From: an uncultured Verrucomicrobiae bacterium
GTDB taxonomy: Bacteria > Verrucomicrobiota > Verrucomicrobiia > Limisphaerales > JAFGQR01
DNA length: 64,000 bases
Reading direction: 5' to 3'
Assembly: GCA_963788655.1 (NCBI GenBank)
Contig: CAWBHS010000099.1
Span: 1-64,000 of the forward strand
Below are positions 1 to 3,884 of this stretch, one piece after another. A program made the position numbers and the translations under genes. Below the pieces are notes generated by a model that saw only the letters and a program-made list of their open reading frames with translations, was not told the DNA's origin and searched no databases. Position 1 is the stretch's first letter, and each line of letters starts with the position of its first letter.

Positions 1-1113
1 GCACGAATTGGAGCGCCGGATTGTGCTTTCCCAATACGTGACGGCGATTAATTGCGCCGGTTCGACGCCGCCGCAGGAAACGGGTCTGGTTCAGAATAGC
101 TCGTACGGGAATTTCCATCTCGAAATGCACTGGTGGCACGCGGCGCACTTCGCCTTGTGGAATCGCCTCGAACTGCTCGAACGCAGCTTGCCCTGGTATC
201 AGCGCATCCTGCCGATGGCCCAGGCGACCGCCCGACGCCAGGGCTACCGCGGCGCCCGCTGGCCAAAGATGGTGGGACCGGATGGACGCGAAAGTCCGAG
301 CAGCGTCGGAGTGTTCCTGATCTGGCAACAGCCGCACCCGATCTATTACGCCGAATTGGCTTACCGGGCTCATCCCGACCGCGCCACGTTGGAACGCTAT
401 CGGGAACTGGTCTTCGAGACGGCCGAAATTCATGGCGTCGTATCCGGGTCTGGGATGCCGCGAATCAGCGCTACGTCTTGGGACCGGTCCTGATCCCGGC
501 CCAGGAAAATTATGATCGGCGCACCACCCTCAACCCCACGTTCGAATTGGCCTATTGGGATTGGGGCCTGAACACCGCCCAGCGATGGCGCGAGCGGTTG
601 GGCTTGGCGCGCAATCCGGAATGGGATCGCGTGTTGAAACATTTGTCCAAGCCCACGGTCAAGGAAGGTGTTTATGCCGCCATCGGACGCCGCCGTTCAC
701 CAAACGCCAGGATCATCCGTCCATGCTGGCGGCCTTGGCGTTCTACCGCTCTCACCGTTGATCGATCCCAACACAATGAGCCGCAACTTGACAACGTGCA
801 AAAGACCTGGGACTGGCCGCGGACCTGGGGTTGGGATTACCCGATGATGGCGATGACCGCCGCGCGCGTCGGCAAACCCGAAGAGGCCATTGACGCCTTG
901 CTGCTGGATACGCCGAAGAACCATTACCTCGCCAACGGGCATAATTTCCAACGCGGCAACCTCCAATTGTATCTCCCAGGCAACGGCGGTTTGTTAACGG
1001 CGGTGGCCATGATGGCTGCCGGCTGGGATGGGGCGCCAAAGAGGTCTGCGCCGGGTTTTCCAAACAATGGCCGTTGGAAGGTGCAGTGGGAGGGACTCAC
1101 CCCGATGCCGTGA
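1..1113 (+). CDS. Six-hairpin glycosidase-like protein (GH65-like), 3' part, frameshifted
   Basis: ORF 8..493 (PPQETGL, FHLEMHWWH, RWPKM, LIWQQPHPIYYAEL) continues in ORF 133..1113 (LGPVLIPAQE, NPTFELAYW, TWGWDYPMMAMTAAR, YLPGNGGLL). Frameshifts near 430 and 690-780; the gene starts before the window. Confidence 0.65.
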
Positions 1114-1510
1114 CCCACCCCTTATACGTGTCTAATCCATGGAGCCTTGGGCGGGCAAGATTGCATCGGTGATTCATCTTGGCCTAAGCTGCGCGGGTGA
1201 CCGAAGTGTCTCCATTGCTATCAATGCCTAAATTGGTCGAGGTTATCGGCGATTCGTTCGCGGTCCCCACCCACGCGTTCCAAGACCAATTGCGGCAAGC
1301 TGATCTTGAAACGGTTCGGGAATTCTTCGAGCGCGGACCCCGGCGAAATCACGCGATGCGGGTTCGGTTTGGTTTGGCCGACAGCCTGGCTCATCGTACT
1401 AATGGTAGCCCGAACCGCATTCGCAGCGCAAACAAGGAAGGACTCGATAATTGATCGTTCGCCAAGTCCCATTCTTGCCTTGCCCGTCGTTTGCCGTTAA
1501 GCATGCCGGC

Positions 1511-1999
1511 ATGAACGTGGCCATATTATCCGACATTCATGACAACATCCCCAAGCTGCAGGCGGCGTTGCGGCGCTGCCAGGAGGCGGAGACGCTGATT
1601 TGCTGCGGTGACCTTTGTTCGCCCTTTATTGCCAAGGAACTGGGCCAGGGATTTTCCAAGCCCGTCCACGTGGTGTTCGGTAACAATGACGGTGACCGCT
1701 TCCGGATTGCCGCGAACGGCGCGAAATTTCCGCACCTGAATTTTCACGGGGAATATGTGGAACTCGAACTGGGCGGCAAGACGTTTTCCGTAAATCATTT
1801 TGACAATATTGGCCGGGCCATAGCCAAAGGCGGTGGCTATGACGTGGTCTGTTTTGGACATAACCATCGTTTCGAAATAAGGAGGATGGTGCGGCGCCAT
1901 GATCAATCCCGGCGAAATCTCCGGCGGCCCCTGACAGGCAACTCGACCTTTGTCAATTACGACACCGCGACAGGCACCGCTACGCGAATAGACCTCTGA
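1511..1999 (+). CDS. Metallophosphoesterase, YfcE/MJ0936 family
   Basis: Motifs SDIHDN, CGDL, GNND and FGHNH. The NPGE motif lies in another frame near 1902-1919, implying compensating frameshifts. Confidence 0.85.
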   Translation: MNVAILSDIHDNIPKLQAALRRCQEAETLICCGDLCSPFIAKELGQGFSKPVHVVFGNNDGDRFRIAANGAKFPHLNFHGEYVELELGGKTFSVNHFDNIGRAIAKGGGYDVVCFGHNHRFEIRRMVRRHDQSRRNLRRPLTGNSTFVNYDTATGTATRIDL

Positions 2000-2111
2000 T
2001 TGGCCGAGCGGCAATGGAGTTCCGGCTTGGGGCGACAAGGCTCATAATTCGCTGATCAGGAACGGCGAAATGCCCTGGCGAAAAAAGTCTGAAAAAAATC
2101 CAATAATGGCG

Positions 2112-2141
2112 TTGACACCCTTGGTCTGAATCGGGTAAAAC
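2112..2141 (+). promoter_or_regulatory. Sigma70-type promoter
   Basis: TTGACA (2112-2117), 18 nt spacer, TAAAAC (2136-2141), A-rich upstream tract; sits 6 nt before a structured RNA candidate. Confidence 0.6.
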
Positions 2142-2147
2142 GGACGC

Positions 2148-2229
2148 GGTTCTGGTAACAGTATAAATACCTCACAGCAGGATCCCCATCCCCACCTCCT
2201 TGGCTGCTGTTGCCAGGGCCATTTTTTTA
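2148..2229 (+). ncRNA. Candidate small RNA (long closing stem, C-rich loop, U-tract)
   Basis: GGTTCTGGTAACAG (2148-2161) pairs over 14 bp (with G-U pairs) with CTGTTGCCAGGGCC (2207-2220), followed by ATTTTTTTAT. The interior contains CCCCATCCCCACCTCCT. No credible ORF follows. Confidence 0.5.
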
Positions 2230-2549
2230 TCTTTCCATACCGCTGGTAACGGTCCGCCTCCCCCCGCTGGCGTTTTGCTTGGACCGGGGTTTGATTGGCA
2301 ACTTATCCGCCCCTTTCCATAATTCGGCAAAACGACCGAACACCCTGAACCATAGAAACCGACGTGAGAAATCTCTCAGTTCTTGGCTAGTTTAGAAGTG
2401 AGTTTCCGCCGTCCGCTTCTCCGTCGAAAGAAGGCTCGCAGAGCATGCCGGCAAAAGTTGCCTCCCAAGTGCCGAACGAGAAGCTCGTTCAGCATGCACC
2501 GCGTCCGTACCGTTACATCGAAGCTACTGGGAGTTGGAAGCAAGCGGGC

Positions 2550-3884
2550 CTACGACAATCCTTTCACTTCCCAGCCTTTCCGGTAGGTCCGGCGGACAAA
2601 GGAATTGGCTTCCTCGACATTCGTAAACGCCAGTTTTTTGGCATTCCATTCCAACGTCGCGTGCGGAAACCGGGTGGCCACACTGCCCAAGAGTACGGAT
2701 TCTGTCAGCGGCCCGGAGTAATCGAAATTGGCCAGGGGCGGTTTGCCGTTGCCGCGGGCGGCTTCGAGGAATTGCGTGTAATGGTGCGGCGCGGTCACGT
2801 TGGGAATGTTGTAGTCCTGGTACTGTTCCTTCGGTAGCAGTTGCGGCATGGCAATGTGCGGGATGAGCATGACCCCCTTTGTGCCGATGAGGATCGAGCC
2901 CTGCCCCGGTATTTTTGTCCGCCGAGCAACGCCTGACGTCCTGCGGCGGGCGGGCATCGCCGTCATACCACGTCACCTTCACGGTCTTACCTTCGGTGAA
3001 CTGGGTCCCGGGGAACACGTAGTGGATCACCGCGTTGATGGCCCAATTCCATTGGTTGGGCGTCGGGCCCTCGGAGCGCACCGACAACGGCGCGGTCAGT
3101 TCCAGCGATTTGAACACCGGATCGTAAATATGGCAGCCCATGTCGCCAAACGTGCCGGTACCGAAGTGAGACGTTTGCGCCAGTTGCCCGGGTGGTAGTA
3201 GGCATTGCCGATGAAGGGACGCTCCGCGCACACGCCCAACCAGATATTCCAATCAAAACCGTCGGGCACCGGGTCGCTGCGGTCCGGACGCGCACTCATG
3301 TCGCCCCATTTCTTGTTGCTCCAGGTGTGGACTTCCTTGACCTTGCCAAGGGCGCCATCCTGCACCAGGCGCACCGCAGTCATGTATTCCCGGCTCGAAT
3401 GAATCTGGATGCCCATCTGCGTGGCGAGTTTCTTCTGTCGCGCAACCAGAGTTAGTTGCCGCGTTTCAAAAACGTCATGCGTGAGCGGCTTTTGACAATA
3501 CACGTGCTTGCCGAGTTGCAGCGCGGACATCGCGATCGGGCCGTGCATGTGATCAGGGACGGACACATTGACCGAGTCGAGTTGTTTTTCTTGGTCAAGC
3601 AACTGGCGCCAATCCTGGTAAATCTTGATGTTCGGGAACTGTTGTTTCCAGCGGGCGGCACGGCTGAGATCCACGTCGGCCACGGCGACGAGTTGGACGA
3701 AATCATGGTGGGTAATGGTTTCCAGATCGGCGCCCGCCATGCCGCTGCCACCAAAGCTGGCGTGAAACAACTTACCGCTCGGCGGAGCGGACATTAGGTT
3801 GCGCGTGACAAACGGAACGCTCAGCCCCGCGAAGGCCACTTGTTTAAGAAACGAACGACGACTGGTGCGAAATTGTGAATTCAT
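2550..3884 (-). CDS. Gfo/Idh/MocA family oxidoreductase with Tat signal, frameshifted
   Basis: N-terminal SRRSFLK twin-arginine motif, VPDHMH, HVYCQKPL, TQMGIQ, GTGTFGDMGCH. Split over ORFs 3096..3884, 2524..3252 and 2550..2966. Confidence 0.85.

Follow-up and report, generated by a model that had tools for sequence, protein, structure and literature searches.

A predicted small RNA family of Verrucomicrobiota with an internal loop resembling the anti-Shine-Dalgarno tail

The stretch of DNA analysed here, which we call the window, comprises the first 64,000 nucleotides of a contig (CAWBHS010000099.1) from an uncultured Verrucomicrobiae bacterium, and at positions 2112-2229 of its forward strand it carries a compact unit with the features of a small RNA (sRNA) gene. 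The unit opens with a -35 hexamer, TTGACA (2112-2117), an 18-nt spacer (2118-2135) and a -10 hexamer, TAAAAC (2136-2141), which matches the consensus at four of six positions and lacks the final T. The predicted sRNA (2148-2229, plus strand like all parts of the unit, about 75-82 nt) would start at 2147-2149 and end in or just after a T tract. Its backbone is a stem, P1, in which the 5' arm GGTTCTGGTAACAG (2148-2161) pairs with the 3' arm CTGTTGCCAGGGCC (2207-2220) over 14 bp, three of them G-U, and which is followed by A2221 and by seven T residues (2222-2228) that form the tail of an intrinsic terminator. Within P1 lies an internal loop made of three parts: a 5' side, UAUAAAUACCUCACAGCA (2162-2179), which is unpaired with a probability of about 0.6-0.9 and includes an extra ACCUCAC motif (2169-2175) specific to the subtype of this copy; a mini-hairpin, P2, of the form GGA-UCCCCA-UCC with a C-rich loop (2180-2191); and an unpaired seed, CACCUCCUUGG (2193-2203), which contains CACCUCCUU, the letters of the 3' tail of 16S rRNA. 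The promoter and the stem with its T7 tract had been placed by a preliminary description made from the letters alone, and every coordinate holds on rereading, those of the stem on RNA folding as well. The exposed C-rich interior that it likened to an anti-Shine-Dalgarno (anti-SD) sequence is also there: CCCCATCCCCACCTCCT (2184-2200) lies in the unpaired interior, which displays CCCC as well, and the seed is mostly unpaired.

The segment 2146-2229 folds into the long stem with a minimum free energy of -28.0 kcal/mol (z = -2.70), and one of 200 dinucleotide shuffles folded as well. Taken alone, this local succession of promoter, hairpin and terminator is weak and only suggestive evidence. A consensus promoter scanner did not call the promoter, because TAAAAC lacks the final T, and the terminator-like sites in the surrounding 2 kb (three, against 2.7 expected from shuffles) are not above chance. 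It is the homologues with compensatory changes that raise the locus far above chance. The unit stands between convergent genes: a Metallophos_2 open reading frame (ORF) on the plus strand ends at 1999, 113 nt before the -35 hexamer, and a GFO_IDH_MocA gene on the minus strand ends near 2524. Since these genes converge on the unit, it does not serve here as leader to any longer mRNA, and the core of the preliminary reading, a stand-alone non-coding RNA of about 80 nt, holds for the predicted transcript. Three mechanically called ORFs overlap the unit (2200-2322, plus strand, 40 aa; 2172-2330, minus strand, 52 aa; 2056-2175, minus strand, 39 aa); the two ORFs scanned against Pfam, 2210-2395 (plus) and 2172-2330 (minus), found no match, and a tRNA/tmRNA scan of the window found none.

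A BLAST search of positions 2100-2235 against the 8.96-Mb assembly of the source genome returned five other places, and a later motif scan of the same assembly added two. By this measure, which is independent of the covariance models, the copy at 2112-2229 is 83% identical to that on contig C97 and 79% identical to that on C12. The letters CACCTCCTTGGC are unchanged among the aligned copies while the stems vary in a compensatory manner, as in the exchange of CTGG/CCAG for CGGG/CCCG or of TAAC/GTTG for TAGC/GCTA, and seven of the copies, folded with RNAalifold, gave 20 pairs, of which 10 have double changes. A covariance model of the family, R1, recovers eight full-length copies in the genome. 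One of them (C32:3197-6289) duplicates window positions 645-3730 at 98.6% identity over 3,096 nt, flanks included, and is probably an allele or a second strain in a bin with 5.57% contamination rather than a true paralogue; the genome would therefore hold seven distinct loci. Apart from this allele the flanks of the copies are unrelated and the likeness stops at the edges of the RNA, which argues against a mobile element. In the window subtype 6 nt separate the end of the -10 box from P1, and the same spacing is kept for TAAACA in C12 and TAATTT in C72, with TTGACA and TTGCAA as their respective -35 counterparts at the aligned position; the transcript should therefore begin at the stem.

The homologues that the preliminary description had proposed to look for proved abundant. 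Of 61 genomes of the order (60 families; Limisphaerales by record titles), 58 carry R1 matches, mostly with E values of 1e-17 to 1e-20 and with 1-10 copies per genome, and a scan with an exact pattern found at least 120 stretches in records titled mostly Verrucomicrobia, Limisphaerales, Pedosphaera or subdivision 3. When 151 genomes sampled from the phylum were scanned, R1 matched 14, and all of these but the source genome itself belong to other classes; their stem sequences are unrelated, and the layout and the core are the same. A second pattern scan returned 99 stretches, the titles being mostly Kiritimatiellia, 'Lentisphaerae' or PVC. R2, a broader covariance model built from 96 matches, is found in 62 of the 151 genomes that sample the class, other Verrucomicrobiae orders included, and in 17 of the 151 that sample the phylum; by family of the other orders it is present in 17/17, 10/11 and 3/3 genomes, but in 0/18, 0/11 and 0/11 of others. 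Judged by sequence, then, this is a large RNA family of Verrucomicrobiota, composed of real sRNA genes. Short-pattern matches in four records titled Bacteroidota (L191, L213, L215, L226) are regarded as chance, none of them matching a covariance model. Copies also occur in tandem on the same strand, 20-700 nt apart (L227:162-361, L194:165-388, L033:1501-2388, and likewise G284:C280 and G028:C638).

Covariation was assessed in an alignment of 96 rows, 92 of them distinct, fitted to the model. About half of the rows had been fetched with a pattern containing the core, the invariance of which is there by construction; the stems lie outside the pattern. Among the distinct rows 98.1% of the pair cells hold a standard pair, as against 73.0% in column shuffles and 44-55% when the structure is slid by one to three columns. 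Double changes occur in 17 of 18 pairs, and the covariation score was reached by none of 500 shuffles. All 14 pairs of P1 show double changes (98.4% of cells paired), three of the four pairs of P2 covary, and at least four T residues follow P1 in 76 of the 92 rows. The family fold is thus a long P1 hairpin that runs into a U tract, with an internal loop formed by a 5' strand, the mini-hairpin GGGR-UUCCYCA-YCCC and a single strand, (C/G)ACCUCCUUGG; every one of these elements has its counterpart at 2148-2228 of the window. A further inner extension of P1 by 3 bp (ACG/CGU, noticed by eye) is paired in 73.5% of cells against 68.3% in shuffles, in columns that shift between classes.

In contrast to the freely changing stems, the seeds are almost invariant. 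CCTCCTTGGC is present in 91 of the 92 distinct rows, about half of which were fetched with a pattern that includes it, and CTCCTT occurs in 19 of the 20 class-level matches that come from the model alone. Outside the order a G replaces the C before ACCUCC, and some members retain only CUCCUU. In the window copy the seed is unpaired with a probability of 0.6-0.7, which rises to 0.8-0.9 in a canonical copy. An alternative pairing suggested earlier, CAGCAG (2175-2180) with CTGCTG (2204-2209), exists in the letters of the window but is not kept by the family, as 66.7% of its cells pair against 63.5% in shuffles. Another alternative concerns window positions 2198-2218, where the 3' half of the seed, CCUUGGC, could pair with GCCAGGG of the P1 3' arm into a shorter terminator hairpin of seven pairs, which by eye is impossible in canonical copies.

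The promoters of the family fall into two types. Upstream of 20 of 37 order-level loci, and of 2 of 37 control stretches, a sigma-70-like -35/-10 pattern is found, TTGACA-N16-18-TAnnnT, at a consistent distance. Outside the order a GAAC-N16-18-GTC motif, most commonly TTGAAC-N17-GTCTAA, precedes 15 of 20 loci from other orders, 18 of 55 from other classes and no control stretch; we take this to be the classic shape of promoters served by extracytoplasmic function (ECF) sigma factors. It is found at none of the 37 order-level loci, and the window copy has TTGACA-18-TAAAAC instead. The exact 12-letter motif is rare, with 0-2 instances per genome in five genomes, and three of its six instances are sRNA promoters. 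One of the remaining instances, a TTGAAC-N17-GTCTAA, lies in the 3' part of an ECF sigma gene of an other-order genome (L310:1051-3028), directly upstream of a zf-HC2 anti-sigma gene that is followed by a gene for a trypsin-like (HtrA-type) protease; as a single example it is no more than suggestive. Two copies of the source genome (C12 and C22:157721-157813) adjoin genes of the envelope-quality-control type, one having a PDZ-containing M50 site-2 protease gene on the opposite strand, 46 nt downstream, and the other an FKBP-type peptidyl-prolyl isomerase gene upstream. These neighbours may be a coincidence, yet they echo the ECF-type promoters of the distant members.

Since the 16S rRNA gene of the source genome was not assembled, its counterparts in three relatives were used, whose 3' ends, GGATCACCTCCTTT, are read as ending in GGAUCACCUCCUUU. 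The sRNA letters CACCUCCUU equal the last nine letters before the UUCU end (9/9, in all three), and they are therefore a nine-letter copy of the anti-SD tail. The host itself seems to make little use of SD sequences. An SD 5-mer precedes some candidate start in 305 of 3,456 ORFs filtered by G+C content at third codon positions, as against 267 in a control window, and most well-spaced genes of the S10-spc-alpha ribosomal-protein cluster have no GGAG- or GAGG-type box upstream, both tests being crude and run without a positive-control genome. The filter was adopted as unfiltered ORF sets held spurious ORFs, recognisable by three-base periodicity upstream. Passages of published reports agree with this picture, describing the sister order Verrucomicrobiales as globally devoid of SD sequences in seven of seven species (PMC10798248) and some Verrucomicrobia as 'SD-scarce' (PMC10783764).

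An exception is rpsU, the gene of ribosomal protein bS21, which has a GGAGAGGAAGUGA-like purine box and a TTG start at five of six loci (C22 near 21118 in the source genome, and L314, L316, L317 and L319); the sixth, a second copy in one genome (L318), has an ATG start and no box. The box pairs with almost the whole 16S tail, at 12 of 13 positions by hand alignment, against 8 bp and one mismatch with the sRNA. This arrangement recalls the rpsU exception and bS21 autoregulation that parts of PMC10798248 describe for SD-less Bacteroidia. The RNA chaperone Hfq (PF17209) was not found in any of the order's 61 genomes, which are at least 90% complete in 59 cases, a control search being positive in 5 of 14 known genomes.

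Altogether, we consider it somewhat better than an even chance, roughly 55%, that positions 2112-2229 hold a real, independently transcribed sRNA gene, the product of which acts by chaperone-independent base-pairing in trans on rare GGAGG-like tracts. We read this copy as a diverged paralogue within the family, confined to its genus. The comparisons above establish, at the level of sequence, the gene, its fold, its family and the layout of its promoter, and from them we infer a transcript, its targets and a direction of regulation. The RNA would be a single long hairpin doubling as its own intrinsic terminator, the internal loop of which would display a C-rich loop on a mini-hairpin (UCCCCA), followed by the unpaired and invariant CACCUCCUUGG, the copy of the 16S anti-SD tail. 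These exposed C-rich seeds would most probably pair in trans, without Hfq, with the GGAGG-like purine tracts of a limited set of mRNAs, much like the C-rich seeds of 6C, RsaE/RoxS and CcsR/NfeR1, and such pairing would change the translation or the stability of the target mRNA. GGAGG-like tracts are scarce in a host that makes so little use of SD sequences, which could render the seed selective.

Several observations weigh against base-pairing in trans on such tracts. A genome scan for stretches of 10 nt or more that exactly complement the loop interior found, besides the sRNA genes, only scattered matches of 11-14 nt, many of them in coding frames, and no candidate target stood out. A duplex-energy scan of 11,703 seed-bearing sites showed no clear enrichment at translation starts, with 28 start-like contexts among its top 100 and 209 in 1,000 random seed-bearing sites, and ranked the rpsU leader 4,634th, the energies being unrealistic and the duplexes too long. 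CCAAGGAGG is not over-represented, with 75 genome sites (the sRNA genes included) against about 100 expected by a composition estimate. The apparently low SD use that could make the seed selective also means that the classic picture of blocked ribosome-binding sites cannot apply broadly, so that the ribosome-binding-site targeting put forward in the preliminary description keeps its place as a suggestion, in this narrower form. Furthermore, 45 nucleotides of the interior are near-invariant across 60 families, among them a U-rich stretch that is not C-rich, which exceeds the needs of a short seed and hints at a protein or a structured partner. Finally, the copy in the window is a weaker member of its family, with the lowest R2 score, a P2 of 3 bp and an imperfect -10 box.

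An SD-poor host and an invariant interior fit simple seed pairing poorly, and they sustain a second reading that is unlikely, in our estimate, but that we keep alive. It holds that the RNA would mimic the 16S 3' end or serve as its decoy, the hairpin and (C)ACCUCCUU imitating helix 45 and the anti-SD tail, and that it would titrate a tail-binding protein (an assembly GTPase, a nuclease or a bS21-type pocket) or compete with the ribosome for those few mRNAs, rpsU among them, that have a strong SD sequence. The nine-letter identity with the tail of three relatives favours this view, as do the conserved rpsU box with its TTG start and the low SD use that appears from the ORF test, the ribosomal-protein genes and the Verrucomicrobiales report, and invariance of the whole interior would suit a protein or structured partner. 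The imitation is imperfect, however: the hairpin loop (UUCCCCA) and the stem are unlike helix 45, with its GGGGAACC loop region, and the spacing from hairpin to CCUCC is 2 nt in the sRNA and 4 nt in 16S rRNA. The change of C to G before ACCUCC outside the order, the members with only CUCCUU and the better fit of the rpsU box to the 16S tail than to the sRNA also count against it, and the gene neighbourhood points to no protein partner.

About as improbable, to our minds, is that the window copy is a decaying paralogue of a real family, no longer expressed or functional. Its 5' loop reads UAUAAAUACCUCACAGC where canonical copies have ACGUUUCUUCAGC, a subtype common to the C97 copy and, more loosely, to C12, and found elsewhere in one other species record only. 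Its R1 match (2141-2232) scores 88.1 bits (E = 3.9e-18) and its R2 match 55.8 bits (E = 7e-11), in part by construction as both models were trained with it, and the other seven copies reach 64.7-85.2 bits with R2. Signs of decay can also be read in P2, which compared with the canonical 4 bp of the C32 allele is one nucleotide shorter, has A for G and is left with 3 bp, and in the -10 box without its final T. Against this, all 14 bp of P1 are preserved, as are the T7 tract and a perfect -35 hexamer; both seeds are intact, and the third motif, ACCUCAC, is common to the C97 copy and a relative. The C32 allele differs at just three places in the unit from promoter to terminator, one in the -10 box (TAAAAA, where the window has TAAAAC) and two in P2, none of them in P1 or in CACCUCCUUGG.

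We speculate, while holding it rather doubtful, that a phylum in which initiation led by the SD sequence has largely been abandoned has preserved, over hundreds of millions of years, a free-standing copy of the anti-SD tail, and that this copy acts on the partners of the tail. It might compete with bS21-poor or 'open-tail' ribosomes for strong-SD messages, rpsU first, or occupy proteins that bind or occlude the tail, thereby tuning ribosome specialisation or assembly. Control of such an RNA would ancestrally have been of the ECF (envelope-stress) type and would have been rewired in Limisphaerales to a housekeeping promoter beside tRNA-Asp.

A role in cis, as the terminator of a neighbouring gene or as a leader or attenuator (for instance of tRNA-Asp in the relatives), is very improbable. 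A stem with a U tract is a terminator by form, and tRNA-Asp(GTC) follows on the same strand, about 50-160 nt downstream, in 19 of 29 relative loci, with tRNA-Gly in one more; the tRNA has a promoter of its own, however, CGTTGAC...TAnnTT, after the sRNA terminator, and no tRNA is adjacent at any of the eight copies in the source genome or the 20 other-order loci. The unit likewise carries its own conserved promoter, the conserved 45-nt interior is unnecessary for termination, and in the window the upstream ORF ends well before the -35 hexamer and the downstream gene runs on the opposite strand. The copy on C89 (89739-89831) fits a role in cis better, as it lacks a T tract and lies about 200 nt upstream of a same-strand GFO_IDH_MocA oxidoreductase gene. 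Its tail, TTTCTCCTTGTGAATA, recurs in a same-genus relative (L038:1501-1591), also without a T tract, and a copy of this type may act as a 5' leader rather than as a free sRNA. Least probable of all, despite the 1-10 copies per genome and the occasional tandems, is a mobile or repetitive element (similar to repetitive extragenic palindromes or miniature inverted-repeat transposable elements) or a type I or type III antitoxin RNA, the latter an alternative of the preliminary description in favour of which nothing speaks: besides the sharp edges of the likeness, the stems covary as RNA, 19 families keep the position beside tRNA-Asp, a reading of the flanks (no dedicated repeat search was run) brought up neither terminal repeats nor target duplications, and the flanking ORFs scanned include no conserved partner, small ORF or toxin-like neighbour, the contexts of the copies in the source genome being different.

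The RNA had been called uncharacterised, and this still stands. Rfam 15 yielded no match at the gathering score in the window and, at E of at most 10 in positions 1950-2600, only two chance matches to snoRNA models; among seven loci of canonical and distant members, at E of at most 1, the sole on-target match was the tRNA. The RNA thus belongs to no known Rfam family or repeat, and 6C, RsaE, cuckoo/CcsR and alpha-r14, which we take to be Rfam families, are not among the matches. Full-text searches, with subscription journals and supplements outside their scope, found no description of it.

Known sRNAs nevertheless offer points of comparison. Cuckoo/CcsR1-4 and alpha-r14 (NfeR1) of Alphaproteobacteria also present CCUCC-type anti-SD motifs in unpaired regions, and they too are multi-copy sibling genes, sometimes in tandem, as are the eight copies of the source genome, the 1-10 copies of its relatives and the tandems of L227, L194 and L033. 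Their promoters are reportedly in part linked to stress. They differ from the present family in that CCUCCUCCC is repeated in the loops of at least two hairpins, where here a single internal-loop CACCUCCUUGG stands beside one CCCC/UUCCYCA loop, and they belong to a different phylum and have no model match here. The likeness to CcsR and alpha-r14 follows parts of two sources (PMC4615179; 10.1101/2025.11.14.688489). The 6C sRNA of Actinobacteria, as portions of PMC6486639 describe it, has C-rich loop seeds, works without RNA chaperones and is conserved across its phylum. C-rich seeds, a host without detected Hfq and deep conservation are shared features, whereas 6C has two C-rich-loop hairpins and no 16S-tail identity, where here one long hairpin holds a nested mini-hairpin and no model match is found. 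By analogy, the family may work like 6C without being a member of it.

In RsaE/RoxS of Firmicutes, unpaired C-rich motifs pair with G-rich ribosome-binding-site regions; this sRNA, conserved throughout a large clade, has a terminator hairpin at its end. The present family resembles it in its unpaired C-rich motifs, its clade-wide conservation and its terminator hairpin, but the folds differ, no model matches, and the hosts of RsaE are SD-heavy where SD use here appears low. The conservation of the C-rich motifs of RsaE/RoxS is treated in sections of PMC6158497. As regards promoters, a comparison can be drawn with the sigma-E-dependent sRNAs. The ECF-type promoter of the distant family members is shared with them, while the window copy and the 37 order-level loci do not have it, and no likeness in sequence or model is seen. 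These sRNAs, MicA, RybB and MicL of Enterobacteria, are Hfq-dependent and carry 5' seeds. An ordinary intrinsic terminator, finally, shares the G+C-rich stem and the T tract, but here there are in addition an interior of 45 nt kept across 60 families, an own promoter and a nested, covarying hairpin.

What is new is a C-rich-seed sRNA family of one-hairpin design, with a nine-letter match to the 16S tail in an SD-poor phylum and with a split between ECF-type and housekeeping promoters. We know of no characterised regulatory sRNA in Verrucomicrobiota, and literature searches found none, so the family would be the first deeply conserved one for this phylum, with good support for its structure, clear seeds and defined promoters, and present in most soil and freshwater Limisphaerales. 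It bears on the question, raised as open in 2024 in a part of PMC10798248, of what role a conserved anti-SD tail has in SD-less lineages, as such a lineage here keeps an extra, free copy of the letters of the tail. The occurrence of ECF-type and housekeeping promoters within one RNA family makes it a case for the study of regulatory rewiring, and the alignment and model could join Rfam and annotate hundreds of genomes.

Two minor observations concern the source genome. The GFO_IDH_MocA gene downstream of the unit (2524-3884, minus strand) is broken into two ORFs (3096-3884 and 2524-3252) that overlap and lie in different frames, where the C32 allele has a single ORF of 340 aa across the matching stretch; the split in the window allele is either a frameshift or an assembly error. 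On contig C34, near 6939 on the plus strand, a stretch, CCTCCCCCTTCCCACCTCCTTGGCC, resembles the interior of the family without a model match and may be a relic copy.

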